Below, one piece after another: positions 2,867-16,448 of a stretch of DNA of 20,790 nucleotides. A model generated the notes under the pieces. The model did not search any database. It worked only from the letters and a program-made list of their open reading frames with translations, and was not told the DNA's origin. The stretch comes from Candidatus Odinarchaeota archaeon (GTDB lineage Archaea; Asgardarchaeota; Odinarchaeia; Odinarchaeales; Odinarchaeaceae). Where the stretch lies: contig JAWBON010000019.1 of NCBI GenBank assembly GCA_038826135.1, forward strand, positions 1 to 20,790, in the 5' to 3' direction. The translations under genes and the position numbers were made by a program. The stretch's first letter is position 1; each line of letters starts with the position of its first letter.

Positions 2867-4015
2867 GTGAGCAAGGTGCTTGATTTGCCTAAAACTAGTA
2901 GAGGAGACTACAATAAGTTCTTGAAAAAAGCCTACGACGCTGAGAATAAAGCCTTCAAGCAATGGGATAAGAATAATTTTCTTAAAGCAGCAGAATTATT
3001 TAAAGACTCTGCAGAGTGGTTTGAGAAAGCTAAACAGGCAGCCACCACTATTGATGAAAAAGTGTTAACCACATCTAACTTTTTTGTAGAGTTAAGTAAC
3101 CATTACTGGGTTTCAGGTCTTAAAAAATATTCTGACGATGAAGAATACGATGACGCTGCCGAGCTTTTTAAAAAAGCCATATTAAATAAGAAGAAAGCTT
3201 TAGAGGCGGATAAAGAGGATCTTCCGTTTAGGAAAGGGTTAGCCGGACAGAAGGAGGTTAAGAGAAGAGAGTGGAGGTTATTTCAGCAATCCACTTTAAG
3301 AGAATTATACGCTTATTATTTTCTTTCCGTCGGGCTTAAAGCCGAGAAAGAGAAGAAGACTAAGATTGCATTAGAGAATTTCGAGAACGCTGCAGCAAGC
3401 TATAATCAGCAGATTAAATATTTGAAAAGTGTTAAAAAACCGTATTATCTCGTTCAACTATATCTTTTGAAAACATATCTTAAGATAGCTCAGTGTAAAA
3501 AAGAGCTGAATAAAGTGAATGAGGCTGTAAACGATTATAACCGTATAATAAGCCAGGTTGAAAAACTTGATAAGCGCCATAAAATGAGAGCTGAAGCGAT
3601 TCTAGCACTTGCAAACGCGGAGCTGGGGGAATGCTATAAGGAATTAGACAGGGAGGGTGAAGCGGTTAACTATTATTGGCGTTTCCTAGAGTGGGCTAAA
3701 AAAGTTAAACTAGACAGGGAGCAGGCTCTAGAAGTGGCCAGATGTATTTGTATAATCACAATTATAAACATTAAATTAGGGAACACCAGTGAAGTGGATA
3801 AGGCTATTAAAGAATTCAAGTCCGGTAAAATATTCGGTAAAAATATAAGAGAAGTTCAAAGAGACCCATGGTATAATCTAGCTTCCTTAATCTCAGAATA
3901 TTATAAAACCGGTGATGAAAAAATCTTTAAAGACGCTAAAGTCGTGTATGAGAAAATGATTGATAAGAAAGACAGATTCATAACAAGGTTCTTTGAGAAA
4001 ACTGAGAATATCTAA
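2867..4015 (+). CDS. TPR-like alpha-helical repeat protein, SNAP (NSF attachment protein)-like pattern
   Basis: 382 aa, Lys/Glu/Ala-rich, with recurring helical repeats (KAAELFKDSAEWFEKA, YDDAAELFKKA, ALENFENAAASY, EAVNDYNRII, ELGECYKELDREGEAVNYY). Confidence 0.75.
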   Translation: MSKVLDLPKTSRGDYNKFLKKAYDAENKAFKQWDKNNFLKAAELFKDSAEWFEKAKQAATTIDEKVLTTSNFFVELSNHYWVSGLKKYSDDEEYDDAAELFKKAILNKKKALEADKEDLPFRKGLAGQKEVKRREWRLFQQSTLRELYAYYFLSVGLKAEKEKKTKIALENFENAAASYNQQIKYLKSVKKPYYLVQLYLLKTYLKIAQCKKELNKVNEAVNDYNRIISQVEKLDKRHKMRAEAILALANAELGECYKELDREGEAVNYYWRFLEWAKKVKLDREQALEVARCICIITIINIKLGNTSEVDKAIKEFKSGKIFGKNIREVQRDPWYNLASLISEYYKTGDEKIFKDAKVVYEKMIDKKDRFITRFFEKTENI

Positions 4016-4076
4016 AGGTTTATTTAAGAAAACATATAAAATAATTATTAATCAGATTCATCCAGGATGTGTCGTT

Positions 4077-4775
4077 TTGAAAATCTTAATCACAGGAGCT
4101 ACTAGAGCTGGTAAAAGCACTTTAATAAGAACTCTGACAAACGGGAAGAGCATAAGTGTTGATAAACACGGAACCACGGTAGCGTTAGATCACGGTGTTA
4201 TAACAGTTAGAGGTATAAAACTCTACTTATTCGGTACACCCGGATTAGAGCACTTCAGTGTTTTAAGAAAGATTCTATCCGAGGGAGCGGATGGAATAAT
4301 ATTCGTAGTTGACAGTGAAGACAAGTCGAACGATAATCTTGCAAAACTCGTCTGGAGAGAGATAGCTTCACTAGCTCCAGCAGTCCCATGCATAGTCGCT
4401 GCTAATAAACAGGATAAGGCTAACGCTAGAAAACCCAGTGAATTACGCAGAGACTTGAAATTCCTCTCCGGTGTTCCCATAATCCCCACCAGCGCCAAAG
4501 ACAATTTCAATTTAAACGTGTTAGTGAACTCTATGCTAACAATATTAATAGGCGAGTTGAGCCCGCTGCTTAAAAAAATAGAGAAATACAGTGACGTGAA
4601 AGAGGGAATCAAGAAAGTCATGAACGATATGAAAATCGATTATGAGAAGATAAAATCCTATTTAAACTGGCTTGAGTACAGGGAACTTGTGGAAGTGGAT
4701 TGGGAGAAAGGCAGCTACTCTATGAGACGGGAGCTTAAAGAATTATTAGATGCTGAAAGCCCGCCTATTTTCTGA
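4077..4775 (+). CDS. Small GTPase of the MglA/CvnD-like (Ras superfamily) type with C-terminal winged-helix-like extension
   Basis: G1 GATRAGKST, switch I TTVALDHG, G3 FGTPGL, G4 NKQD, G5 SAK. Start moved from the track's 3993 to TTG 4077 (GGATGTG SD-like site just upstream, AT-rich TATA-like region 4021-4045). Confidence 0.9.
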   Translation: MKILITGATRAGKSTLIRTLTNGKSISVDKHGTTVALDHGVITVRGIKLYLFGTPGLEHFSVLRKILSEGADGIIFVVDSEDKSNDNLAKLVWREIASLAPAVPCIVAANKQDKANARKPSELRRDLKFLSGVPIIPTSAKDNFNLNVLVNSMLTILIGELSPLLKKIEKYSDVKEGIKKVMNDMKIDYEKIKSYLNWLEYRELVEVDWEKGSYSMRRELKELLDAESPPIF

Positions 4776-4786
4776 ATTTTAACGGG

Positions 4787-4803
4787 CGAAAAGTATTTAA
4801 GCA
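4787..4803 (+). promoter_or_regulatory. BRE + TATA promoter of the aro operon
   Basis: CGAAAA (4787-4792) followed by TATTTAAGCA. Implies a transcription start near 4825, ~230 nt before aroA'. Confidence 0.65.
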
Positions 4804-4849
4804 TATAACAGTTTAATCTATCAGCGTCTATTTATTAGAGGTGCAGGAT

Positions 4850-4918
4850 TTGGCGGGGTGTTGGAGGTATAACTTTTTTGGAAGATATTCAAAACCTCCT
4901 ACAGGATACTCCGCTTAA
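4850..4918 (+). CDS. Putative aromatic-rich leader peptide [22 protein letters not shown] (22 aa; 25 aa if GTG 4841 is used)
   Basis: GAGGTG SD (4838-4843), 6-nt spacer, TTG 4850, TAA 4916-4918. 6 of 22 residues are W/Y/F. Confidence 0.55.
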   Translation: MAGCWRYNFFGRYSKPPTGYSA

Positions 4919-5057
4919 ACCAGTTTTAAGCACCAGCATATTACCGGCTATAATTAAATCTTCGCTTGATTTTATGCCGTATAAGATTTTTTTAAAAGAA
5001 TCTGTTTTAGAAAACAATGTCTATATTAAAATCTTTGAAAGGGGGTTAAATAGTTGA
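4878..5057 (+). CDS. Putative 59-aa uORF ([12 protein letters not shown]...FERGLNS) of unknown function
   Basis: GGAGGT SD (4863-4868), 9-nt spacer, TTG 4878. Its TGA overlaps the aroA' TTG as TTGA. Confidence 0.45.
4945..4993 (+). terminator. Terminator-like hairpin plus T7 tract inside the aro leader
   Basis: CGGC(4945-48)/GCCG(4976-79) and AAATC(4956-60)/GATTT(4968-72) stems, then TTTTTTT at 4987-4993. Confidence 0.4.
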
Positions 5058-5830
5058 ATGGCAAAAAAATAAGACTTTCTAGAATTATGAAAAACGGAAA
5101 AGCGGTAATAATACCGATGGATCACGGTGTAAGCAACGGTCCTATGGATGGAATAGTGAAAATAGAAGACACTATTAGAAAACTCGAGGAAGGAGGGGCT
5201 ACTGCAATACTCACACATAAGGGAATAGTTCGAAGCCTAAGCCAGGTTCCTAAAACAGGCGTAATAGTTCATTTCTCAGCTTCAACCTCAATGTCCCCTG
5301 ATACAAACTGGAAAGTCCAGGTTGGAAGCGTTGAGGAAGCTATAAGACTGGGCGCGGATGCGGTCTCAGTCCACGTTAACATAGGATGCGATCGAGAGCC
5401 AGAGATGCTTATGAAACTGGGTGGAATAGCTGAAGCCTGTGATGAATGGCAGATACCTCTACTAGCTATGATGTACCCTAGAGGTAAAAACGTGAAAGAC
5501 CCCTTCGACCCTAAAACAGTAGCCCATGTTGCACGGGTTGGAGCTGAACTCGGAGCTGATATAATTAAAACCAATTACACTGGAAGCCCGGAAACATTCA
5601 GACAGGTTGTTGAAGGCTGCCCTGTACCTGTTGTTATAGCAGGCGGCCCGAAAATGGATTCAGATCAAGCAGTTTTAGAAATGGTTAAGGGAGCCATGCA
5701 AGCGGGAGCTGTCGGAGTTTCAATGGGTAGAAACGTATTCCAGCACAGAAACATAGCCGGGATGACCAGAGCTTTATACAAGATAATAGTTGAAGGAGCC
5801 ACTGTTAAAGAGGCTGCTAAAGAATTATAG
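5054..5830 (+). CDS. aroA': 2-amino-3,7-dideoxy-D-threo-hept-6-ulosonate (ADH) synthase, class I aldolase DhnA family
   Basis: [70 protein letters not shown]. Adjacent to DHQ synthase II. Confidence 0.93.
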
Positions 5831-5843
5831 ACAGGTGAATGAG

Positions 5844-6938
5844 TTGAGTAAAGAAGTCTGGGTGGATCTTTCAAATCAGAAATGGCCTTCGAAAAAAGAG
5901 GTTTTAACCACTGCTCTAGAACGTGGAATCAGCACAGTGATACTCGATGAAGAGGATATACCTAAAGCTAGAAAAATAGGGCAGTTAAAAATAGCCACAT
6001 ATTATAAAGATTTAAAGACACCCTCTGAGGCCGATTTCCAAATAATTGAAAATGTAAAAACCAGTGAACAAACGCAAAAAATAAGCGAAAGTATACAGGC
6101 TAGAAGATATGAAATAAACAGTAACGAGGATGTTTTAATAATTAAAGAAGAGAAAAACACACTGCCATATTTTATAATATCAGCTAAAAACTGGAAGGTA
6201 ATCCCCCTAGAGAATCTAATAGCGGAATTCCAGAACAGTAGAACAAAACTTATCGCAGAGGTTAACAGTATTGAAGAGGCCAAACTGTTCCTTCAAACCT
6301 TGGAGAAAGGTGTAGACGGCGTGTTATTAAAGAATCCAACAATAGACCAAGTGATCGAGACAGCCAAGATATTGAAAGAATTTTACAAGCAGAAAACCGA
6401 ACTCACACCAGCTAAAATAACCGTGATAAAACAGTTAGGAGCTGGCGACAGAGTTTGCATAGACACATGCTCAATACTTCGAAAAGGAGAGGGTATCCTA
6501 GTAGGTTCCCAGTCAAAAGGCCTATTTCTAGTCCATTCTGAAAGTTTGGAGTCTGAATACGTTGCTTCCAGGCCTTTCAGAGTAAACGCGGGACCGGTTC
6601 ACTCCTATGTTTTAACACCCGGTAATAAAACCAAGTATCTTTCCGAGCTGAAAGCAGGAGATGAAATCCTAGTTGTTAGCAGTAAAGGAGAGACTTTTAC
6701 AGCTATTATCGGCCGTGTTAAAATCGAGGTAAGACCGTTAATACTGGTAGAGGCTGAAGTTAAAGGTGAAACCTATAAGATAATACTTCAGAACGCTGAG
6801 ACTATAAGACTGGTTGACAGTAAAGGTGAGCCTGTGTCTATAACCCAGTTAAAAGTCGGAGATCAAGTCCTGTTAAATATTAGAGAAGGGGCCCGCCACT
6901 TCGGAACCCAAATCCAGGAGACAATAATAGAACGGTAG
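5844..6938 (+). CDS. aroB': 3-dehydroquinate synthase II (oxidative deaminating)
   Basis: WKVIPLENLIA, LEKGVDGVL, GDRVCIDTCS, SRPFRVNAGPVHSY, VGRVKIE-type GRVKIEVRPL, LQNAETIRLV, RHFG..IQETIIE. Start moved to TTG 5844 (AGGTGA SD). Confidence 0.95.
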   Translation: MSKEVWVDLSNQKWPSKKEVLTTALERGISTVILDEEDIPKARKIGQLKIATYYKDLKTPSEADFQIIENVKTSEQTQKISESIQARRYEINSNEDVLIIKEEKNTLPYFIISAKNWKVIPLENLIAEFQNSRTKLIAEVNSIEEAKLFLQTLEKGVDGVLLKNPTIDQVIETAKILKEFYKQKTELTPAKITVIKQLGAGDRVCIDTCSILRKGEGILVGSQSKGLFLVHSESLESEYVASRPFRVNAGPVHSYVLTPGNKTKYLSELKAGDEILVVSSKGETFTAIIGRVKIEVRPLILVEAEVKGETYKIILQNAETIRLVDSKGEPVSITQLKVGDQVLLNIREGARHFGTQIQETIIER

Positions 6939-7637
6939 ATGGTTTATTTGATAGGCTCCACATTAATATGCGTCTCAATAGTAAAGAGGACGCTGGTCGA
7001 AATAATCAAGGCAGCTAACACACTGTTAAAAGAACCCGTAGACCTCTTAGAGCTCAGACTAGACTATCTTAAACCATTACCAGAACTAGAACAAGTTCTC
7101 AAACTATTAGACGTTAAAAAACCTAAAATAATCACGTTTAGACCTAGAAGCGAGGGCGGTGAAAGCGATCTTGACGATGAAAGCAGAATAAATATTTTCA
7201 AAGAATTCATTAAAAAAAGAGTTGAATATGTGGACATCGAGTATTCAACTCTGAAAAATAAAGAGGTGTTGAAAGAAGCGGAAAACTATAATGTGAAAAC
7301 AATACTTTCAAAACATATATTAGATGAAACACCCTCTTTTAAAGAGTTAAAGACACTACTAAATAATATGATGGTTTTAAAACCGTCTTTTATAAAAATA
7401 TCAACAATGATAATGGATAAAGATGACGTGATAACACTCTCCAAGCTTATAAGCTACGCTAACAAGAAGAATACTCCGATAGTGGTTACTGGAATGGGCG
7501 AGCTTGGAAAAATCACCCGGATATTAAACCCTATAATGGGCTCTAAGATAACCTACTGCAGCATGCCAGGTGAACCTGCAGCTCCAGGCCAACTAGATTA
7601 TAATAAAACTATAACAATGTTAAAAGAATTATTCTAG
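6939..7637 (+). CDS. aroD: Type I 3-dehydroquinate dehydratase
   Basis: DLLELRLDYL, ITFRP..EGG, YVDIEY, SKH...TP, KIS (Schiff-base Lys), GMGELGKITRI, APGQL. Confidence 0.93.
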   Translation: MVYLIGSTLICVSIVKRTLVEIIKAANTLLKEPVDLLELRLDYLKPLPELEQVLKLLDVKKPKIITFRPRSEGGESDLDDESRINIFKEFIKKRVEYVDIEYSTLKNKEVLKEAENYNVKTILSKHILDETPSFKELKTLLNNMMVLKPSFIKISTMIMDKDDVITLSKLISYANKKNTPIVVTGMGELGKITRILNPIMGSKITYCSMPGEPAAPGQLDYNKTITMLKELF

Positions 7638-7649
7638 GAGGTATATTAA

Positions 7650-8729
7650 ATGAGTAAAATAGGTGTAGCAGTATGCGGCGCAACCGGGAGCGTGGGCCAA
7701 AGATTCATAGAACTGTTACAAGGCCATCCCTGGTTCGAGCTTAAATGCATAATGGCTTCTGAGAGAAGTGAAGGTAAAAAATACTCGGAAGCGGTTCAAT
7801 GGATAGTCTCATCTAAGATGCCGGAACAGGTTAAAGACATGGAGATTAAACCACTCTCAACTAAAAGCTTAAAAAACGAGGATGTTAAAATAGTGTTCTC
7901 AGCCCTACCAGCAGATGTAGCCGGACCTGTCGAAGAGGAGTTTGCTAAAGCAGGCTACGCAGTCTCATCAAACGCTTCAGCTCATAGAAAAGACCCTGAT
8001 GTACCGATACTCATACCAGAGGTTAACGCTGAACACATTAAACTAATACCCGTCCAGCGAAAGAAAAGAAATTGGGACGGCCTCATCGTCACCGAGGCTA
8101 ACTGCACAACCACCGGTTTAATAATGCCTTTGAAACCGATATACGACAGTTTCGGCATAGAAAAAGTGATAGTGACAACTATGCAAGCGCTCAGCGGAGC
8201 CGGGCTTCCAGGAGTTCCAAGCATGGCAATCATAGATAACGTAATCCCTTACATAGCTAATGAAGAGGAGAAAGTGGAATGGGAGACGTTAAAACTTTTA
8301 GGGAAATTCGACGGGGATAGAATACTCCCCGCTAACATCAAGGTGAGTGCAAGCTGCAACAGAGTCTTCGTATTAGACGGCCACACTGAATCCGTCCTCG
8401 TGGAGACAACTAGAAAAGCCAGCGTTGAAGAGATTAAAAAAACGCTTGAAGATTTTAAAGGAGAGCCTCAAAAACTGAAACTACCAACAGCACCTAAGAA
8501 TCCGATCATTGTTTTAAACGAGGTAAACCGGCCTCAACCGAGATTTGACAGATGGGCGGGGGAGCCTGAACGCGCTAAAGGCATGGCGGTCTCGGTTGGT
8601 AGAATACGCCCAGACACAGTTTTCGAGAAAGGTGTTAAAATGACTGTTCTATCCCATAATACTGTAAGAGGTGCTGCAGGGGAATCAATACTAAACGCGG
8701 AGCTTTTAGTAGCTCATAAACTAGTGTAG
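7650..8729 (+). CDS. asd: Aspartate-semialdehyde dehydrogenase (archaeal/fungal type)
   Basis: GATGSVGQRF, FSALPADVA, SNASAHR, ANCTT (catalytic Cys), TMQALSGAG, CNRV.VLDGHTE, SHNTVRGAAG. GGAGGT SD. Confidence 0.96.
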   Translation: MSKIGVAVCGATGSVGQRFIELLQGHPWFELKCIMASERSEGKKYSEAVQWIVSSKMPEQVKDMEIKPLSTKSLKNEDVKIVFSALPADVAGPVEEEFAKAGYAVSSNASAHRKDPDVPILIPEVNAEHIKLIPVQRKKRNWDGLIVTEANCTTTGLIMPLKPIYDSFGIEKVIVTTMQALSGAGLPGVPSMAIIDNVIPYIANEEEKVEWETLKLLGKFDGDRILPANIKVSASCNRVFVLDGHTESVLVETTRKASVEEIKKTLEDFKGEPQKLKLPTAPKNPIIVLNEVNRPQPRFDRWAGEPERAKGMAVSVGRIRPDTVFEKGVKMTVLSHNTVRGAAGESILNAELLVAHKLV

Positions 8730-8736
8730 TGAGTTT

Positions 8737-9615
8737 ATGTTGAAAAACCACAGTTTGAACGCGGAGACCAGCCTATACTGTCTAATAGGCAGCCCAGTCT
8801 CCCACTCCCTATCTCCACTAATGCACAATCACGCCTTCCGAAAACTCGGTTTAAACGCAGTTTACATAGCCTTCAACGTGGAGGACAACAAACTCGGTGA
8901 AGCGGTAAAAGGGTTAAGAGCCCTTAACATAAAAGGAGCGAATATTACAATCCCGCATAAAACCAGCGTGATCAAATACTTAGACACCGTGGATGACACA
9001 GCTTTGAGAATAGGGGCTGTTAACACTATTAAAAACATTAACGGAAGACTAGTAGGGTATAATACGGATTGGGAGGCAGCTATTGAACTCTTAAAAGAGA
9101 AAGCGGGAAAACTGCAGGGAAAGAACGCTCTTATAATAGGAGCGGGGGGTGTTGCTAGAGCAATCTTATACGGACTGGTAAAAAACAGTGTTAACGTGTC
9201 AATAACTAATAGAACCATGGATAAAGCCCGCCAACTAATAGTTGAATTAAAAAAACACGTAGGTGAAAAAATCGAGTGCACAGCGTTAAACCCTGAGAAA
9301 ATCAGAGAGAAAATATCAGATTTCCAGATAATCATAAACGCTACACCGCTCGGCATGACACCGAATATAAATGAAACACCGTTAAATACAGACTACTTAA
9401 CCGGTGAAATAATAGTTTTCGACACAGTCTACAATCCGCTTGAAACCCTTCTGATAAAAAAAGCTAAGCAGCAGGGTTCCACTGTAATAGAAGGCTACAG
9501 GATGCTTGTCAAACAGGGAGCGTTATCGTTCAAGCTATGGACAGGCATAGAGCCCCCTGAGAAAGATATGGAGAAAATAGTGTACATGAAGTTGAAGGGT
9601 GATCTTGGTGAATAA
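8737..9615 (+). CDS. aroE: Shikimate dehydrogenase
   Basis: GSPVSHSLSP.MHN, GANITIPHK, GAVNT, GYNTD, IGAGGVARA, NRT, INATPLGM, DTVYNPLET, MLVKQG. Confidence 0.96.
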   Translation: MLKNHSLNAETSLYCLIGSPVSHSLSPLMHNHAFRKLGLNAVYIAFNVEDNKLGEAVKGLRALNIKGANITIPHKTSVIKYLDTVDDTALRIGAVNTIKNINGRLVGYNTDWEAAIELLKEKAGKLQGKNALIIGAGGVARAILYGLVKNSVNVSITNRTMDKARQLIVELKKHVGEKIECTALNPEKIREKISDFQIIINATPLGMTPNINETPLNTDYLTGEIIVFDTVYNPLETLLIKKAKQQGSTVIEGYRMLVKQGALSFKLWTGIEPPEKDMEKIVYMKLKGDLGE

Positions 9616-10480
9616 AAAAGCCTCAGCTATTTCACACGGTGCGATAACTGTGATAAACGCTATAGCGGCGGGATTAGGCTCCGCTATAGGAATAGACCTG
9701 TGGACTAGAGCTGAGGTTGAAATACTAACAGAGGAAAAATATATAAGCAATATTTCAGGTTATGAAGAAGCGGACACCTCGTTAATCGAGAACTGTGTTA
9801 GGAAAGTTTTTGAAAAATTTAATATAAAAGGCTGCGGTGCTAAAATAACCACTTACAGCAATATACCAATCGGTAAAGGTCTTAAAAGCAGCAGTGCAGC
9901 CGCTAACGCTGTTACACTAGCCACTGTTAAAGCGCTTAACCTCAACCTATCCGATATTGAAATAATTAAAATAGGGGTTGAAGCGGCTATACAGTCGAAA
10001 GTAACTATAACAGGAGCCTTCGACGATGCTGCAGCATCATACTTCGGCGGCCTAGTTCTCACAGACAACACTAAATATCAAATAATATTTAGAAAACCGT
10101 TCACGAAAAATGTGAAAGCAGTTCTACTTATACCCGAACAGAAAACGTCAACACGGACAGTTGAATCTATTAATAAAACAAAGCTTATAGGCAAACTCAT
10201 ACCGCACATAGCCGACCTTGTTAGAAAAGACATGGTTGAAGACGCGATGAGTTTTAACGGATTCCTATACGGTGCATGTTATAACACTCCGACGGAGGCT
10301 TTATTCAAAGCTTTTGAAGCGGGAGCTACAGGGGTAAGCGTCTCAGGAACAGGCCCGACCATAGCTGCTTTAATCGACGAGGAGAAAGTAAACTTGTTAA
10401 AAAAAGCGTGGAGCGGGTTTAAAGGCGAGATAAGAGTCACAAATATAAATAACAGTAAAGCTAACGCTGCTATAATATAG
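9608..10480 (+). CDS. aroK: Archaeal shikimate kinase (GHMP superfamily)
   Basis: GAITVINAIAAGLGSAIGID, IPIGKGLKSSSAAANA, TITGAFDDAAASYFGG, SGTGP. Likely GTG 9608 with GGGTGAT SD, overlapping the aroE stop. Confidence 0.95.
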   Translation: MNKKASAISHGAITVINAIAAGLGSAIGIDLWTRAEVEILTEEKYISNISGYEEADTSLIENCVRKVFEKFNIKGCGAKITTYSNIPIGKGLKSSSAAANAVTLATVKALNLNLSDIEIIKIGVEAAIQSKVTITGAFDDAAASYFGGLVLTDNTKYQIIFRKPFTKNVKAVLLIPEQKTSTRTVESINKTKLIGKLIPHIADLVRKDMVEDAMSFNGFLYGACYNTPTEALFKAFEAGATGVSVSGTGPTIAALIDEEKVNLLKKAWSGFKGEIRVTNINNSKANAAII

Positions 10481-10509
10481 GAGGTGAAGGGCGTCTAGAA
10501 AAACAGCCC

Positions 10510-11820
10510 GTGAAAATGGTTAAAGCAACTATTCACCCGGTTAACTCTTTAAAAGGAGAGGTGGAGGCACCCCCATCTAAAAGCCACACCCACCGCATAC
10601 TAGTAGCAGGCCTCCTATCAGAGAATAATATAAAAGTTTATAATCCGCTTATCGCAGGTGACGTTGAAGCTACCATAAACTGTTGCAGATTATTCGGCGC
10701 GGAGTTGAAAATAAAAGATAAGTTAATTGAAATAACTCCACCGGATAAGTTAAACGCTCCGGTAGAGGTTTTAGACGCTAAAAACTCCGGGACAACCATA
10801 CGCTTCATGATGTCGATAGCGGCGATGGCTAAGGGGACAACTCGTCTAACCGGCTCACCGCAGCTTAAAAAAAGACCGATGGAGGACTTAGTAAACGCGT
10901 TAAACACTCTAGGAGCTACCTGCAAATACCTGGAGCGTGAAGGATATCCCCCTATCTCCATAACAGGCAGCGATAGATTAGGCGGAGAGGCTTCAATTCC
11001 AGGAGGCATCAGCTCGCAGTTCATATCCAGCCTATTATTAGCGTTACCAAGATCAACAGTCAACTCTATAATACATATTAAACCACCGGTTAAATCCAAA
11101 CCCTACATAAAAATGACGCTGGAGCTTTTAAGTAAAAGCAGTATAACTATAAAAGCTTCAAAAGACTTTAAAGAATTCATAATACCTGGAAACCAGCATT
11201 ATAATATAAGCGAATACACCGTTCCAAGCGACTGGTCTTCAACCGCTTTCCTACTAGCAGCCGCTGCGATAACTAATTCACCACTAACAGTTACCAACGT
11301 TGACTTCAACTCTATAAGTGCTGATAGAAAGATAATAAATGACCTTGAAAAAATGGGTGTTAAAATAGAAGCAGACGTTGAGAGAAAAATATTGAAGGTA
11401 AAAGAGTCTAAACTGTCAGGTGCTAGAATACACTGCGGTAACTCACCGGATCTTATACCAATATTAGCGGTGATGGCCTCATATGCGAAGGGGACAACAA
11501 TCATTTACGGAGCGGAGCATGTCCGCTACAAGGAGAGTAACCGGCTTTCCACCATAAGGGAGGAGCTTACTAAAATGGGGGTTAAAATCAAAGAAAATAA
11601 AACCGGTTTAACAATAAAAGGCTCAGGTGGAGTAAATCCTTCGAATAATTTAGACTCGCACGGAGACCATAGAATATTTATGTCCCTGTGCATAGCAGCG
11701 CTCAAAGCAGGCGCACCCTGCACCATCAACGGGCTGGAGACATACAGTGACTCCTACCCGAGCTTTATTAAAGATCTTAAAAAAATAGGTGTAAAAGTGG
11801 AGGAGAAGATAGATGCCTGA
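10510..11820 (+). CDS. aroA: 3-phosphoshikimate 1-carboxyvinyltransferase (EPSP synthase)
   Basis: PPSKSHTHR, NSGTTIRF, RPM, SSQFISSLL, PDL.P, KESNR, DHRI. Start may be GTG 10510 or ATG 10516. Confidence 0.96.
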   Translation: MKMVKATIHPVNSLKGEVEAPPSKSHTHRILVAGLLSENNIKVYNPLIAGDVEATINCCRLFGAELKIKDKLIEITPPDKLNAPVEVLDAKNSGTTIRFMMSIAAMAKGTTRLTGSPQLKKRPMEDLVNALNTLGATCKYLEREGYPPISITGSDRLGGEASIPGGISSQFISSLLLALPRSTVNSIIHIKPPVKSKPYIKMTLELLSKSSITIKASKDFKEFIIPGNQHYNISEYTVPSDWSSTAFLLAAAAITNSPLTVTNVDFNSISADRKIINDLEKMGVKIEADVERKILKVKESKLSGARIHCGNSPDLIPILAVMASYAKGTTIIYGAEHVRYKESNRLSTIREELTKMGVKIKENKTGLTIKGSGGVNPSNNLDSHGDHRIFMSLCIAALKAGAPCTINGLETYSDSYPSFIKDLKKIGVKVEEKIDA

Positions 11821-13192
11821 TAACAGTCTTGGAAAAATCTTCAAGATCACAGTATTCGGGGAAAGTCATGGAAACGTTATAGGCGTAGTTGTAGACGGGG
11901 CCCCAGCCGGGTTAAAAATAAGCGATGAAATAATTCAAGCCGAACTGGATAAAAGAAGACCGGGCTTATCAGAAACCTCTACAACACGCTTAGAAGAAGA
12001 CAGGGTGAAAATATATTCAGGTGTATTTAACGGTTTAACAACCGGCGCCCCCATATGTATGATGATAGAGAATAGAAATATCAGAAGCGAAGACTATGAA
12101 GAGTTTAAATCAAAACCCAGACCAGGACATGCAGATCTCACCGCCTATATCAAGTACGGTGGGCTTAACGATTACAGGGGTGGAGGGCAGTTCTCGGGAA
12201 GAATCACAGCAAGCTTTGTAATGGCAGGCGCTATAGCTAAGCAGATACTAGCAGTTAAAAAAATAGATGTCTTAGCCTATACTTATAAAATAGCGAATAT
12301 TACAGCGAATATCCCCGGATTAGATGAGATCAAGGTGAAAAAGAACACAAACCAATTATATTGCCCAGATAGAGAAGCCTCTGAGGAAATGCTTAGAAAA
12401 ATATTAGACGCTAAAAAGGAGGGGGATAGTGTCGGGGGGGTAATCCAGTGTATAGTAACAGGTCTACCCCCGGGTATAGGGGAACCAGTCTTCTCCTCTA
12501 TTGAAAGCGAGATCTCTAAAGCCATCTTCTCAATACCGGGTGTGAAAGGAATAGAGTTCGGCTCAGGGTTTAAAGCAGCGTTAATGAAGGGCTCCGAGCA
12601 TAATGATCCGTTTAAATATGAGAATGGGAGAGTAGTGGCGGAGACGAATAACGCTGGCGGGGTGCTCGGCGGCTTATCAACAGGGATGCCTGTAATATTC
12701 AATGTAGCTGTGAAGCCGACAGCCTCTATAGCTAAAGAACAGTTAACAGTCGACCTTGAAAATAAAGTTCAAACAACTATAAGAGTTAAAGGCAGACACG
12801 ACCCCTGCATAGTACCCAGAGCTGTACCTGTGGTTGAAGCTGTCACAGCGATAGTCATAGCGGACTTGTTAATTCAAGCCGGGTTTATTGAGCAAGTGCA
12901 ACCTTCAGATAAAAAAGACATAAAATATCAGAGGGGATTAATAGACAGGCTTACATTCAAGATACTGGAATTATTCAAGCAGAGAACAGACGCCGCTATG
13001 AACATAGCTAAAATAAAAGCTGAAAAGGAAACCAGTATACGCGATATTGAAAGAGAAAAACAGTTACTAGATGAAGCCGCACTCTATGCTAAGAGAATCG
13101 GTCTACCGGAGGAGGATGCTATCAGCCTCGTTAAAGAATTAATCAGGTTAACGGTTAAATTAGAGGAAAAAACTAGTAAAACAGGCAAGTAA
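11813..13192 (+). CDS. aroC: Chorismate synthase fused to a C-terminal AroQ chorismate mutase domain
   Basis: GESHG, RPGHAD, SGRITA, GDSVGG, GIEFGSGF, VKPTASI, GRHDPC, then an ~90-aa tail with R..ID......L...R....IAK.K......D..RE. Confidence 0.93.
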   Translation: MPDNSLGKIFKITVFGESHGNVIGVVVDGAPAGLKISDEIIQAELDKRRPGLSETSTTRLEEDRVKIYSGVFNGLTTGAPICMMIENRNIRSEDYEEFKSKPRPGHADLTAYIKYGGLNDYRGGGQFSGRITASFVMAGAIAKQILAVKKIDVLAYTYKIANITANIPGLDEIKVKKNTNQLYCPDREASEEMLRKILDAKKEGDSVGGVIQCIVTGLPPGIGEPVFSSIESEISKAIFSIPGVKGIEFGSGFKAALMKGSEHNDPFKYENGRVVAETNNAGGVLGGLSTGMPVIFNVAVKPTASIAKEQLTVDLENKVQTTIRVKGRHDPCIVPRAVPVVEAVTAIVIADLLIQAGFIEQVQPSDKKDIKYQRGLIDRLTFKILELFKQRTDAAMNIAKIKAEKETSIRDIEREKQLLDEAALYAKRIGLPEEDAISLVKELIRLTVKLEEKTSKTGK

Positions 13193-13214
13193 TAATCACG
13201 TGGGGGATTCATGT

Positions 13215-14099
13215 TTGAAACTGGCTGTTTTAGGAGGAGCCGGTAGGCTGGGAGCTTGGATTACAAGATTTTTAATAGCGCACAATATACAGACCGTTAT
13301 AGCTACACCCGATTTAAAGAAGCATAAGCGTTTCATAGATGAACTTGGCTTAGAAGCCTACAGCGACAACGTAAACGCGGTTAAATCAGCGGACGGTGTT
13401 ATAATATCAGTTCCATTAGAGGATACAGTAACAGTTCTAAAAGAGATAACCCCGCATATTAAACAGAACTCGTTTATAATAGAAGTCTCCTCTATAAAGA
13501 CACCGGTTGAAGAATTTCTTAAAGAGAATAGTAAAATCTTGCTTGAAAAAAACATCAGCCTTCTTTCCATCCACCCCATGTTCGGTCCAGGTGCTAAAAC
13601 AATTAAAAGAAAAAATATTATACTAATACCCTACACGGGAAACGAGAATATACTGCGACGCGTTAAAGAGTTTTTACAACGTGAAGAAGCTCGCATAGTG
13701 GAATCAACTTATAGAGAACACGATCAGAAAGTTGCATTCACCCTAGCTCTACCCCACTTCCTAACAATGCTTTTCACCGCGGTTATCAGCAGCAACCAGT
13801 TTAAAAACGATTTAAAAAATTACGCTGGCACCTCATTTAAAATATTAAAGCTTTTATCTGAAAGCCTCCCCTCCGAATCCTGGAAACTCTACTCACATAT
13901 TCAGATGATTAATAATTACACAGTAAACGTATTAGAGAGTTTGAAAACCCACTTCAATAAATTATTCGAAATCATAATAAACAAAGACATAGAAGGATTC
14001 AAACAATTCTGGAATAATAATATACTCCCCGTAGACGATGATAAAACAAACTGGATAAAATCCTATAAGAAAATCTACAATCTCATAGAGAAAATTTAA
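13215..14099 (+). CDS. tyrA: Prephenate (arogenate) dehydrogenase
   Basis: KLAVLGGAGRLG, IISVP, EVSSIK, SIHPMFGP, EHDQ.VA...LPH, GTSF. Likely TTG 13215 after GGGGGAT SD. Confidence 0.9.
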   Translation: MKLAVLGGAGRLGAWITRFLIAHNIQTVIATPDLKKHKRFIDELGLEAYSDNVNAVKSADGVIISVPLEDTVTVLKEITPHIKQNSFIIEVSSIKTPVEEFLKENSKILLEKNISLLSIHPMFGPGAKTIKRKNIILIPYTGNENILRRVKEFLQREEARIVESTYREHDQKVAFTLALPHFLTMLFTAVISSNQFKNDLKNYAGTSFKILKLLSESLPSESWKLYSHIQMINNYTVNVLESLKTHFNKLFEIIINKDIEGFKQFWNNNILPVDDDKTNWIKSYKKIYNLIEKI

Positions 14100-14103
14100 T
14101 ATT

Positions 14104-14122
14104 AAAAATAAAAAAAGAAAAA
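14104..14122 (-). terminator. Oligo-U terminator for trpB2
   Basis: Minus strand reads TTTTTCTTTTTTTATTTTT directly after the trpB2 stop. Confidence 0.65.
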
Positions 14123-14125
14123 ATA

Positions 14126-15433
14126 TTAGTCGAGTTTCAGAACCATCCTGTATCCTTCAATATCCAGCAGCCCATGCCCGCTATAGTTGAACACTATAAC
14201 TTTCTTTTCATTCCGCTTCTTAGCCTCTTTCGCAAGATCTATAGCCGCACATATAGCGTGGCTTGTCTCAGGAGCGGGAATAAGCCCCTCAGTCTCAGCG
14301 AAAAGCTTAGCACACTGATATATCTGCTCCTGCGGATAAGCGACAGATTTTATGAATCCCTCATTCCTCAACAAACTAACAGTAGGCGCTGCACCGTGAT
14401 ATCTTAACCCACCAGCGTGTATCGGAGGAGGGATAAACTCACAGCCTAAAGTGTACATTTTTATTAAAGGCGTTGTTTTAGCAGTATCACCGAAATCGTA
14501 ACGGTACTCGCCTTTTGTAAGAGACGGGCATGCTACAGGTTCAACCGCTAAAACCTCCGGGGAAGATAACTCGTTTCTAAGTATTTTACCAAGATACGGA
14601 AAACTGAACCCGGCGAAGTTACTGCCACCTCCAACACAGCCGATTAAAGAATCAGGGATAAGATCCAGCTTATTCATCTGCTCTATAAGCTCCTGACCGA
14701 TCACAGTCTGATGTAAAATAACATAGTTCAGAACACTGCCTAACGTGTACTTTGTATCCGGGTTTTTAACAGCCATCTCTATAGCTTCACTTATAGCTAT
14801 GCCTAAGGAACCTGGATGATTAGGATCCTTAGATACAAGGCTTCGACCGTAATCTGTTTTATCACTCGGAGAAGCGTAAACATCAGCCCCCAGAAGTTTC
14901 ATAATATATTTACGATACGGTTTCTGATTATACGAGCAGCGGACCATGAAAACCGTGCATTTTATACCAACCATCGCACACGCGTAAGCTAAAGCACTAC
15001 CCCATTGACCCGCCCCGGTCTCAGTGGTTAAGTTTCTCACACCCTCCTTCGCAGCATAGTATGCCTGCGCTATCGCAGTATTCGGTTTATGGCTGCCTGT
15101 CGGGGATAAATCCTCTCTTTTAAAGAATATTCTAGCAGGCGTGTTCAGTCTCTGTTCAAGTCTCTTAGCCCTGTATAGGGGGGACGGTCGACCCAGCCGG
15201 TAATAGTATTCTACCAGATCCTCAGGTATACTAATATAACGCTCCTTCGCAAGCTCCTGCTTCACACACTCCTTAGGGAAAAGATTCATCAAAGCTTCAG
15301 CTGGGATAGGCTCTTTCGAAGCAGGGTTAAGATACGGTGGAAACTCTGATCGTATATCCGCTAATATATTATACCATTTCCTAGGCAACTCATCCAATCC
15401 AAGTTGAACCTTCACATCATTCATATTAGACAT
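14126..15433 (-). CDS. trpB: Tryptophan synthase beta chain, type 2 (stand-alone TrpB2)
   Basis: 435 aa, LP.KWYNI, GSHKPNTA (PLP Lys), TETGAGQWG, GCVGGGSNFAG, PPPIHAGGLRYHG, PAPETSHAI, FNYSGHGLLD. GGAGGT SD at 15445-15440. Confidence 0.96.
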   Translation of the reverse strand: MSNMNDVKVQLGLDELPRKWYNILADIRSEFPPYLNPASKEPIPAEALMNLFPKECVKQELAKERYISIPEDLVEYYYRLGRPSPLYRAKRLEQRLNTPARIFFKREDLSPTGSHKPNTAIAQAYYAAKEGVRNLTTETGAGQWGSALAYACAMVGIKCTVFMVRCSYNQKPYRKYIMKLLGADVYASPSDKTDYGRSLVSKDPNHPGSLGIAISEAIEMAVKNPDTKYTLGSVLNYVILHQTVIGQELIEQMNKLDLIPDSLIGCVGGGSNFAGFSFPYLGKILRNELSSPEVLAVEPVACPSLTKGEYRYDFGDTAKTTPLIKMYTLGCEFIPPPIHAGGLRYHGAAPTVSLLRNEGFIKSVAYPQEQIYQCAKLFAETEGLIPAPETSHAICAAIDLAKEAKKRNEKKVIVFNYSGHGLLDIEGYRMVLKLD

Positions 15434-15503
15434 AATTCAACCTCCAAAATTTTTTAATTTTTAAAAAAATATAGAATTTATCAGCTAACCAGTGCAGTGG
15501 CTT

Positions 15504-15644
15504 CTAAGGCCACAATAACCAGCGCCAAGCCCAGATCCGGCTTAACAAAAAAGCCTCAGATGAAAAAACACTATTTAAAAACAGTTCTACTTTCAAGTAA
15601 GGGTTAACACCACTCGCGCACTGCACTGTTAAAGCTAACTCCAT
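15504..15644 (-). CDS. Putative Trp-rich leader peptide ending LLSRIWAWRWLLWP (46 aa from ATG 15644; 14 aa from TTG 15548)
   Basis: Four TGG codons at 15533, 15527, 15521 and 15512; TAG 15506-15504. In-frame starts: ATG 15644 (AAGGTG SD, 11-nt spacer), GTG 15626, TTG 15596, TTG 15548 (GAGG SD, 5-nt spacer). Confidence 0.65.
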   Translation of the reverse strand: MELALTVQCASGVNPYLKVELFLNSVFSSEAFLLSRIWAWRWLLWP

Positions 15645-15654
15645 TCCAAGGCAT
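15604..15654 (-). CDS. Putative overlapping uORF MPWNGVSFNSAVREWC (16 aa, 2 Trp)
   Basis: First ATG downstream of the trpB2 promoter, stop TAA 15606-15604. The SD is only 1 nt from the ATG, so initiation is doubtful. Confidence 0.3.
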   Translation of the reverse strand: MPWNGVSFNSAVREWC

Positions 15655-15694
15655 ACACCTTACTGAAAGATTAAAAATAAATTAAAAAATGTAG

Positions 15695-15710
15695 TATATA
15701 ATATTTTCGG
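15695..15710 (-). promoter_or_regulatory. BRE + TATA promoter for the trpB2 leader/trpB2
   Basis: CCGAAAA (15710-15704) followed by TATTATATA (15703-15695). Implies a transcription start near 15672. Confidence 0.7.
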
Positions 15711-15712
15711 TG

Positions 15713-15907
15713 TTAACTAGTTTCAAGATAGTCTTCTATAAGAATAGTTAACAATGGAATAAAACAGACAGGCAGGATCCATAAATTATCCGAAATAGTT
15801 AAAGGAATCAGTGGAAGCCTTACAAATCGTAAAATAACCGAGATTATTAGAAAAACGCTCCAACACGTTAAAATAATATAAGTATTTTTCAACTTAACCT
15901 TATCCAT
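15713..15907 (-). CDS. Small membrane protein (64 aa, about 2 TM segments)
   Basis: ATG 15907 after GGGAG. Hydrophobic stretches YIILTCWSVFLIISVIL and LWILPVCFIPLLTILI. Confidence 0.6.
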   Translation of the reverse strand: MDKVKLKNTYIILTCWSVFLIISVILRFVRLPLIPLTISDNLWILPVCFIPLLTILIEDYLETS

Positions 15908-15920
15908 AAAACTCCCTTTT

Positions 15921-16448
15921 TTAAATTGAAAGCCGCCGAATCTTATCCTCAAACTTGGACTTTAAACTATGATATTCCTCCGAGCTGATCTCGCCTGAAC
16001 TATGCCTCGAATCTAAAGAAGCAAGCAGCTCCTTGTATATTTCAAGTTCAGCTTGCCTATCATCTTCCAATTCAACCATACTAGAATTTTCAAGTTTGTT
16101 TGTCAGCTCAGCTATAATCTTATCTCTCTCCAACACCTCCGCCTTAAGAGAAGCCACTGTAGACTCTAAATTATCAATCCTGGTTAATAAATCATTTATC
16201 TGATTAAAAAAAATATCCCGTTCAGCAGGCTTTGTTTTCCCAGTAACCTCCACTAGAACAGAATCACTGGCTGGTGTAGAGCGGGGGGGTGTTTCTACTC
16301 GAGTTGAAGACGTACTACGCTTCTCCATTAAATATACTATCAAGAATAGGGTAGGAAAAAGCATCATAATAAAAAGAATCGGGCTTAATAAAATAAGTAT
16401 TAAATCAACTAATATTAGAAGCAGTAAAAATACGATAACAATAAACAA
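15921..16448 (-). CDS. Membrane-anchored coiled-coil protein with C-terminal SHOCT-like motif
   Basis: 40-aa hydrophobic N-terminus, S/T/P linker, heptad region (INDLLTRIDNLESTVASLKAEV...), and LASLDSRHSSGEISSEEYHSLKSKF. GAGGTG SD 8 nt before the TTG. Confidence 0.75.
   Translation of the reverse strand: MFIVIVFLLLLILVDLILILLSPILFIMMLFPTLFLIVYLMEKRSTSSTRVETPPRSTPASDSVLVEVTGKTKPAERDIFFNQINDLLTRIDNLESTVASLKAEVLERDKIIAELTNKLENSSMVELEDDRQAELEIYKELLASLDSRHSSGEISSEEYHSLKSKFEDKIRRLSI

Follow-up and report, generated by a model that had tools for sequence, protein, structure and literature searches.

The leader of trpB2, the gene for a stand-alone TrpB-like pyridoxal phosphate (PLP) enzyme in a Candidatus Odinarchaeota archaeon, is likely to act as a sensor in which translating ribosomes read tryptophan (Trp, W) codons. 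The gene lies on a 20,790-nucleotide (nt) stretch of DNA (positions 1 to 20,790 of contig JAWBON010000019.1, GenBank assembly GCA_038826135.1; hereafter the window), where it converges with an operon of nine genes including those of aromatic biosynthesis (aro), and each of the two units is preceded by a leader containing at least one short upstream open reading frame (uORF). We regard the trpB2 uORF as a translated Trp-codon leader because no other true intergenic site of the genome has such a Trp run, the genus has kept its frame, and similar runs recur, in phase and at the C-terminus, in other Asgard families. The aro leader is built differently, with sensing of aromatic amino acids a plausible function; this overall reading, which pairs it with a ribosome-based Trp sensor before trpB2, seems to us moderately probable. 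The genome analysed (G000; 1.26 Mb, 38% GC, with the window as contig C19) was compared with three further genomes of the same genus (G001-G003), of which G002 is a single closed contig.

The conserved trpB2 leader is ~240 nt long and begins ~25 nt downstream of a putative promoter composed of a B recognition element (BRE) and a TATA box, identified as such from its motifs; the lengths of ~235 nt given to both the aro and trpB2 leaders follow from the TATA position alone. Its 46-codon uORF has in-frame alternative starts at TTG 15596 and TTG 15548 and ends in IWAWRWLLWP-TAG in G000 and in (F/I)WAWRWL(L/T)WP-TAG across the genus, which places four UGG codons among the last nine sense codons. 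The frame is open in all four genomes, while the peptide ahead of the Trp run differs between them. Two indels occur within the uORF in the four-genome alignment, in different genomes and each of 3 nt, whereas those outside it, 5' of the first ATG or 3' of the stop codon, measure 1, 5 or 7 nt. Because the indels inside the frame are multiples of three, the others are not and the peptide varies, the alignment bears the mark of a frame maintained for its translation and not for the peptide that it encodes.

A run of this kind is exceptional in the genome. Scanning all six frames for at least four TGG in ten stop-free codons returned six places genome-wide, among which the trpB2 leader is the sole true intergenic one; the other five comprise three inside genes (off-frame or antisense), one rRNA-like sequence and one gene cut by a contig end. 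Among the 2021 small open reading frames (ORFs) of 733 upstream regions, the trpB2 uORF ranks second for any single-amino-acid run (P = 4e-7). The other top-ranking runs that were checked precede unrelated genes (Ile before an alpha/beta hydrolase, Arg before a DUF711 protein and His before a glycosyltransferase), which shows that moderate amino-acid runs arise by chance, and the Trp run is the only strong one that is also cognate to its downstream gene. A preliminary description of the window, made from the sequence alone, had proposed that the uORF codons of both leaders match the pathway they precede and had named two comparisons by which to judge this. The proposal withstands both of them for trpB2: against leaders of unrelated genes its Trp run alone is both strong and cognate, and within the genus the trpB2 uORF, like that of aro, is kept in four of four genomes.

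Trp runs also recur well beyond the genus. We examined the regions upstream of 69 trpB2 orthologues, drawn from Asgard genomes belonging to ~20 families, using the antisense strand as a control. Frames with at least three W in 12 codons were present in 21 regions when the sense strand was read and in 4 when the antisense strand was, and frames with at least four W in 12 codons in 15 and 1, respectively. A phase-blind search for at least four TGG within 36 nt gave 24 sense and 3 antisense clusters; all TGG share one phase in 15 of the 24 sense clusters, where fewer than one such cluster is expected by chance. The runs, distributed over ~9 families, are invariably C-terminal in their ORF and have unrelated flanking sequences, as in FWRWQWCWRWQ, SWHPWRSWRWQ, TWRWHWHWCF, WRWWHWL, FWRWQWPWRF, SWRWQWAWCWCR and GWPWRGPWQ, each followed directly by the stop codon. 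At least three in-phase C-terminal UGG codons no more than ~450 nt upstream of a trpB2 orthologue were found in the window, in its three genus relatives and at loci in families f3, f6, f9, f16, f18, f22, f24 and f27. Across families, the only shared features are the C-terminal W run and the linkage to trpB2. A separate metagenome scan with TGGNNNTGGCGNTGGNNNNNNTGGCCNTAG for more leaders of the Odin type gave 106 matches, and these were set aside as chance since none of the 80 loci listed had a TrpB2 or any likeness to the leader.

This recurrence bears on two explanations in which decoding of the Trp codons plays no part. It is very improbable, in our view, that the uORFs encode small functional peptides, such as a Trp-rich C-terminal membrane anchor: their conservation as open frames would be expected of such peptides, but the trpB2 peptide outside the Trp run is variable and tolerates indels, nothing except the W run and the trpB2 linkage is shared across families, and the peptide of the second ORF of the aro leader (ORF2, described below) is unconserved. 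The other explanation is control by a protein, with the uORFs incidental, exerted either by a DNA-binding repressor of the TrpY kind or by a TRAP-like, Trp-activated RNA-binding protein on UGG or UGGC repeats. TRAP recognises GAG/UAG repeats. Most W codons of the runs are followed by C or G, so that they do yield the words UGGC or UGGG; a binding repeat, however, needs neither a reading phase nor a stop codon at its end, and the one-phase TGG codons of 15 of the 24 clusters lie in an open frame that a stop codon terminates. This is our main argument for a codon-based, translational function.

Protein control has a precedent for trpB2 in TrpY of Methanothermobacter, and candidate regulators exist at other Asgard trpB2 loci. 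In families f15 and f8 (L005, L006, L008), which lack the Trp run, a ~130-amino-acid helix-turn-helix-like ORF (PLSTVK..LR.L.ECGL) overlaps the trpB2 start; its Pfam match is only sub-threshold (RP-C). In the order-level relatives G004-G006 (L017, L019 and L020; family f2), TTTTTGTACACAAAAGC adjoins the TATA box TTTAAATATAG ~60-110 nt upstream of trpB2, and this arrangement of TGTACA beside TATA, together with a divergent 193-amino-acid gene without a Pfam family, looks like repressor-operator control instead of a leader uORF. Against an extension of such control to the window, homologues of the f15/f8 ORF and of the 193-amino-acid protein were not found in G000 (E >= 0.37), TGTACA is present in neither leader (all three matches in the window lie inside coding genes), and the ORFs neighbouring the aro/trpB2 cluster carry no transcription-factor domain, as the preliminary description had noted. 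We therefore consider protein control of these two units improbable.

How a translated Trp-codon leader might act on trpB2 can be outlined from its predicted RNA structure. When charged tRNA-Trp is scarce, a ribosome would stall on the UGG run, leaving a downstream segment (B) free to pair with an upstream one (A, 15639-15618); when Trp is plentiful, the ribosome would reach the UAG and cover segment B. The two RNA states would set the amount of trpB2 made, and the regulated step may be read-through of the U7 tract that follows, access of a termination factor, or translation. The leader is predicted to fold strongly (-75.9 kcal/mol, z = -4.44, with 0 of 200 shuffles as stable). Besides the A:B pairing, the folds contain a 5' stem, P1 (CUUUCAGUAAGGGUG paired with CACCCUUACUUGAAAG), and a 9-bp helix between UCU(A/G)AGGC(C/U) inside the uORF (15560-15552) and GGCCUUAGA (15511-15503), the latter spanning the final Trp, Pro and stop codons; all three helices recur in the four genomes. 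In folds constrained by masking a ribosome-sized stretch, the A:B helix survives when the ribosome sits on the second UGG, and a ribosome at the stop codon removes both A:B and the stop-codon helix, with P1 formed instead.

Several observations weigh against this account. The ribosome-free fold is identical to the stalled fold, only a ribosome at the stop codon alters folding, and for this reason any switch must, according to the models, be kinetic, acting during the brief period in which RNA polymerase is still close ahead; such a switch is geometrically reasonable since the U7 tract (15469-15463) lies 35 nt past the uORF stop. Compensatory changes support 0 of 62 consensus pairs, the four sequences being too alike. 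Any of the three in-frame codons may start the uORF: the Shine-Dalgarno (SD)-like AAGG(G)TG is weak and poorly spaced, 13 nt from ATG 15644, and the ATG-bearing 5' element TTGGAATGGGATTAGCTTT recurs in family f27 as TTGGACTGGRATTAACTTT, without the ATG. The genus retains a T5-7 run with A5-6 immediately behind it, as do families f16 and f27, but among W-run leaders T runs occur in 13 of 20 as against A runs in 17 of 20, and T runs were accordingly rejected as a general feature of such leaders. Finally, a terminator scan of both leaders found no GC hairpin with a T run at either T7 tract, and the two terminator-like sites scored in the trpB2 leader fall on the Trp run itself, without a T run. 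Archaeal RNA polymerase terminates at oligo-T with no hairpin required (review PMC13675443), and since oligo-T thus suffices, attenuation at the U7 tract is possible. That the U7 tract is a terminator we only infer, and the proposal that the trpB2 leader acts by transcription attenuation there is correspondingly tentative and held at less than even confidence.

Two further features of this leader deserve mention. A 5' element, TTGGAMTGGRATTARCTTT (window 15650-15632, minus strand), is common to the Odin trpB2 leaders and the f27 leaders (L117, L115), in which a strong local hairpin follows it, and the sharing suggests that both derive from one ancestral leader RNA. In G000 alone among the four genomes, the uORF frame remains open for 25 codons beyond the UAG (15434-15503, minus strand), its UAA overlapping trpB2 codons 2-3, so that read-through of the UAG would reach the trpB2 start; a bridging ORF in the trpB2 leader was nevertheless rejected, as the other three genomes have none.

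The aro leader contains two overlapping ORFs. Its promoter, putative in the same sense and assigned from the archaeal consensus, is followed by uORF1, in which the codons for W-R-Y-N-F-F occupy 4862-4879, and by ORF2, which begins within uORF1 in the +1 frame and extends to the start of aroA', the first enzyme gene. Across the genus, uORF1 reads M-(A/V)-(G/E)-C-W-R-Y-N-F-F-(G/E)-(R/E)-(Y/F)-x6-(Y/H)-S-A-stop; codons 4-10 (CWRYNFF) show synonymous changes only (TGT/TGC, AAC/AAT), and codons 14-19 are scrambled between genomes, yet stop-free. The invariance of its SD, start codon and length indicates that uORF1 is probably translated. ORF2 reaches the aroA' start in G000, G002 and G003 and ends 23 nt short of it in G001. 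The 110 nt between uORF1 and aroA' share only 41-63% identity between genomes and the ORF2 peptides are unrelated; when these 110 nt are shuffled, an open frame of this kind survives in 3-8% of trials per genome (P 0.03-0.08). A frame that stays open across diverged sequence points to ORF2 being very probably translated, and its translation, not its product, seems to matter.

uORF1 is also predicted to fold into a hairpin (-33.3 kcal/mol, z = -3.56), whose base pairs the start region GGYGGRGUG with the uORF end AYACUCCGC and is closed by a helix between the uORF1 SD (SD1) and a C-rich anti-SD1. In G000 this closing helix joins GGUGC to GCACC, and in G001 and G002 it joins GAGGUGU to ACACCUC, including one compensatory change, U-A to C-G, read by eye; in G003 the same C-rich block pairs with the uORF1 start region instead.

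Whether uORF1 senses aromatic amino acids is harder to decide than the case of trpB2. In the mechanism that we consider plausible, uORF1 would read the supply of aromatic aminoacyl-tRNA and gate expression of ORF2 and aroA'. The composition of uORF1, however, is near chance: at least four aromatic residues in six occur in 59 of the 2021 small ORFs of this genome, W, Y and F occur together at this density in 12 of 437 leader regions (~3%), and the Ile, Arg and His runs that precede unrelated genes are of similar or greater strength. In 19 aro-operon leaders of other Asgard families, whose operon starts were called crudely, there was no excess of aromatic uORFs over the antisense strand. With composition near chance and no enrichment in other Asgard leaders, the case for sensing rests on conservation within the genus, which is itself partly explained by the SD (SD2) and TTG start (TTG2) of ORF2: the invariant TGGAGGTATAAYTTTTTTG is SD2, spacer and TTG2, and its conservation could also reflect ribosome binding for ORF2. 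Stalling on W-R-Y-N-F-F would, moreover, place the ribosome over SD2 and TTG2, and with positive termination-reinitiation coupling aroA' would therefore be lowered on starvation, which is the wrong sign for a biosynthetic operon. Searching 400 Asgard genomes for the W-R-Y-N-F-F codon pattern gave 42 matches, compared with ~20 for the reversed control, but as contexts were inspected within the genus only, the comparison is uninformative. In a Freyarchaeia chromosome (CP147778; L167/L040), TGG-rich sequence giving the frame D-W-T-W-M-W-W-F flanks tandem copies of GGTGATGCCCTGCCAA ~120-260 nt upstream of asd-aroA'; the repeat is present in the relatives L165 and L166 too, but is read there in another frame.

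These points are the substance of an alternative for aro alone, in which ORF2 is the functional leader ORF that couples ribosomes to aroA', and the aromatic codons of uORF1 are a by-product of the GGAGGU SD, the spacer, the U-rich ORF2 start region and the hairpin, without any sensing. It accounts exactly for TGGAGGTATAAYTTTTTTG, for the openness of ORF2 in four genomes over diverged sequence and for the weakness of an aromatic enrichment that the 19 other Asgard leaders do not show. It does not so readily account for uORF1 itself, where SD1 and TTG1 are equally invariant with a variable spacer between them (the spacer of SD2 is conserved, that of SD1 is not), where exactly 22 stop-free codons are held despite the diverged middle six, and where codon 13 changes from Tyr to Phe to Tyr with its aromatic character kept. 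We judge this alternative rather unlikely, and hold to sensing of aromatic amino acids by uORF1 as a tentative possibility only. A variant would restore the right sign of control: a ribosome starved at the invariant AAY-UUU-UUU-G of uORF1 could slip +1 into ORF2, translate through the unconserved spacer and so reach the aroA' start at TTGA. On UUU, tRNA-Phe can re-pair perfectly one base further, and the ORF2 frame is open from the uORF1 start onward in all four genomes, with an invariant U6-7 run; such a slip would, however, read Phe alone, ORF2 is itself equipped with an SD and a TTG, and no re-pairing is available at the Trp and Tyr codons. We consider it a long shot.

With both leaders described, the unified scheme of the preliminary description can be assessed. 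It had presented them as sharing one layout, with BRE/TATA promoters, cognate uORFs, mutually exclusive helices and an identical element, ATTTTTTTAAAA, before the SD of the structural gene. The sequence features that it listed are all found where it placed them, among them the two convergent units, the CGAAAA-BRE/TATA motifs before both leaders, which are conserved in the genus, and the pathway codons in the uORFs (W/Y/F in aro and four W in trpB2, with W-R in both). The single layout is not supported: the aro leader has a bridging 59-codon ORF2, not mentioned in that description, the trpB2 leader has no conserved counterpart, and the 12-mer is conserved in trpB2 only. ATTTTTTTAAAA does occur exactly twice in the window (4986-4997; 15470-15459), where whole-window shuffles give an expectation of 0.08, but its absence from the aro leaders of G001-G003 leaves a common functional part unsupported. 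The aro copy, which encodes K-I-F-L-K within ORF2, is probably incidental, and the identity of the two is best read as coincidence in AT-rich sequence. Mutually exclusive helices can indeed be drawn in both leaders, although compensatory pairs number 0 in trpB2 and one, by eye, in aro.

The same evidence bears on whether both leaders are classical bacterial-style attenuators of one design, in which a cognate peptide picks between antiterminator and terminator and the shared AUUUUUUUAAAA is the termination site. Each leader does have a uORF with cognate codons, is predicted to pair in alternative ways and carries the same 12-mer, and the T6-7 tract of trpB2 is conserved in the genus, f16 and f27. 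A GC hairpin adjoins neither T tract, however, the aro 12-mer lies inside the conserved open ORF2 and is absent from three of the four genomes, the 110 nt between uORF1 and aroA' are not conserved as sequence, and the ORF architecture differs between the two leaders. Rfam gave no match at gathering score over the whole window and no leader family even at E <= 5 for either leader, the matches at E <= 5 being at chance level (for example, a CRISPR repeat and an HIV stem-loop). The terminator/antiterminator design of the preliminary description thus finds neither a hairpin-plus-U terminator nor an Rfam leader match, and we regard it as improbable, if slightly less so than protein control. A T-box, which is a riboswitch with one specifier codon in a loop, is not matched in Rfam either, and the trpB2 leader has several in-frame UGG in an open frame instead. 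The aro and trpB2 leaders are analogous devices, not copies of one layout.

Table 1 Features of the aro and trpB2 units in the window, in window coordinates.
Feature	Position	Strand	Basis or conservation
Putative aro promoter: BRE-like CGAAAA and TATA GTATTTAA	4787..4800	+	Read in sequence; GAGAAAAGTATTTAAAC in G001-G003
SD1 GAGGTG, 6 nt before TTG 4850	4838..4843	+	Invariant in 4/4 genomes, 6-nt spacer variable
aro uORF1, 22 codons, TTG 4850 to TAA 4918	4850..4918	+	Length same in 4/4 genomes
SD2 GGAGGT, spelled by Trp-Arg-Tyr codons, 9 nt before TTG 4878	4863..4868	+	Invariant in 4/4 genomes
aro ORF2, 59 codons, +1 frame relative to uORF1, TGA within TTGA at aroA' start	4878..5057	+	ORF list
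Anti-SD1 GCACC, predicted to pair with SD1	4930..4934	+	Minimum free energy (MFE) folds
ATTTTTTTAAAA in aro leader, inside ORF2	4986..4997	+	Exact match; not conserved in G001-G003
aro operon, nine genes	5054..14099	+	Pfam and NCBIfam matches
trpB2 (TrpB-like PLP enzyme), SD GGAGG at 15445-15441	14126..15433	-	NF009057, TIGR01415
ATTTTTTTAAAA in trpB2 leader: U7 tract then A run, ~35 nt past uORF stop, ~20 nt before SD	15459..15470	-	Conservation
Segment B (GCCACTGCACTGGTTAGCT), predicted long-range pairing with segment A	15483..15501	-	MFE and consensus folds
trpB2 leader uORF, 46 codons from ATG 15644, TAG at 15504	15504..15644	-	ORF list
Trp run: four UGG in eight codons	15510..15533	-	Genome-wide TGG scan
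5' stem P1: CTTTCAGTAAGG(G)TG with (C)ACCCTTACTTGAAAG, enclosing first ATGs and segment A	15590..15669	-	Arms invariant in genus
Putative trpB2 promoter: BRE CCGAAAA and TATA TATTATATA	15695..15710	-	Invariant in 4/4 genus genomes

The gene content of the window and its genome places the two leaders in context (Table 1). The aro operon encodes, in order, ADH synthase (TIGR01949), 3-dehydroquinate synthase II, type I dehydroquinase, aspartate-semialdehyde dehydrogenase (asd), shikimate dehydrogenase, a GHMP-type shikimate kinase, EPSP synthase, chorismate synthase fused to chorismate mutase, and prephenate dehydrogenase. For trpA, the chorismate-binding domain of trpE and trpC, there was no match above the curated cut-off in G000, G001 or the closed G002, G000 giving no more than a sub-threshold IGPS match (18 bits versus a 27-bit cut-off). 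With none of these genes found in G000-G002, stand-alone TrpB2 appears to be the sole Trp-forming enzyme detected in three of the four genus genomes. The exception, G003, has a trp operon from trpE to trpA (contig C99, 2409-8257; locus L154 onward), which sits alone on an 8.7-kb contig and could be a strain difference, a horizontal transfer or a binning artefact. No Trp-run uORF precedes trpE on contig C99, and a search with ARAGORN detected no tRNA in the GC-rich sequence ahead of that gene.

Other genes flank the two leaders. A small Ras/Arf-like GTPase with a C-terminal extension (3993-4775, plus strand) ends 12 nt before the aro BRE; Ras/Arf-like GTPases of such kind are typical of Asgard genomes. 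Upstream of the trpB2 promoter lie an unannotated 79-amino-acid ORF without a Pfam family (15713-15952, minus strand), the 3' end of whose frame is kept at the DNA level within the genus, and a second unannotated ORF (15921-16448, minus strand) of 175 amino acids with a coiled coil and a sub-threshold SHOCT match.

Among known systems, the trpB2 leader most invites comparison with trpL of E. coli and Salmonella (RF00513, Trp_leader). Like trpL, it has a short ORF with clustered, near-terminal Trp codons that even include a W-R pair, its strong fold includes pairings that would be broken by a ribosome reaching the stop codon, and a U tract precedes the structural gene. Unlike trpL, its host is an archaeon, its target is a stand-alone trpB2, its uORF may be up to 46 codons long, its U tract has no abutting GC hairpin, and the Rfam model does not match it. 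As oligo-U or the factor FttA is all that archaeal termination requires, the read-out must differ from that of bacteria. The trpB2 leader is trpL-like in its sensing part and lacks the defining features of the trpL type in its read-out part.

The aro leader has different counterparts. Like the leaders of E. coli pheL-pheA and pheM-pheST, uORF1 is short, has its own SD, contains Phe-Phe plus Tyr and Trp, and precedes aromatic-pathway genes; unlike them, it has only two Phe codons in a mixed W/Y/F run, no terminator and a +1-frame ORF bridging to the first enzyme gene, and its conservation is seen within one genus only. As in ermC and cat leaders, the uORF lies within a hairpin that hides a second ribosome-binding site, but in ermC the stalled ribosome frees the downstream SD, whereas the putative aro stall site sits on SD2. 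The overlap of the upstream-ORF stop with the next start (TTGA) resembles that of termination-reinitiation coupling (review of translational coupling, PMC12548453).

The archaeal comparison is with TrpY, a DNA-binding protein that acts at promoter TRP boxes (TGTACA-type). The target gene, trpB2, is the same; the leaders described here lack TGTACA boxes, the cluster contains no candidate regulator, and a codon-based leader is in their place. TrpY is said, in work of Karr et al. from 2008 (J Bacteriol 190:2637, cited in PMC3729527), to regulate trpB2 and trpEGCFBAD in Methanothermobacter thermautotrophicus in response to Trp. Our literature search found no report of leader-peptide control or attenuators in archaea, in agreement with the statement of the preliminary description that leader-peptide attenuation is undemonstrated there.

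Ribosome-mediated sensing of amino acids by leader peptides is a textbook bacterial mechanism, promoter-bound repressors are an established mode of control in archaea, and TrpY is, to our knowledge, the only regulation of trpB2 known in archaea. If our reading of the trpB2 leader is correct, translation is coupled through hungry codons to gene control in archaea as well, and the leader would offer a short, concrete element for the study of archaeal transcription-translation coupling and of termination by oligo-U or FttA. As TrpB2 is apparently the sole Trp-forming enzyme in most of the genus, the whole capacity of these organisms for making Trp out of indole would be under the control of the leader. 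With its two ORFs, the aro leader contributes another architecture beside the trpB2 type. Should the +1 slip prove true, amino-acid hunger would be converted directly into enzyme synthesis by a translational switch of an undescribed kind, and Asgard archaea would, with the trpB2 leader, hold two mechanistically distinct ribosome-based amino-acid sensors. Because Asgard archaea are the closest prokaryotic relatives of eukaryotes, such leaders, if functional as proposed, would also bear on the origin of eukaryotic uORF control.

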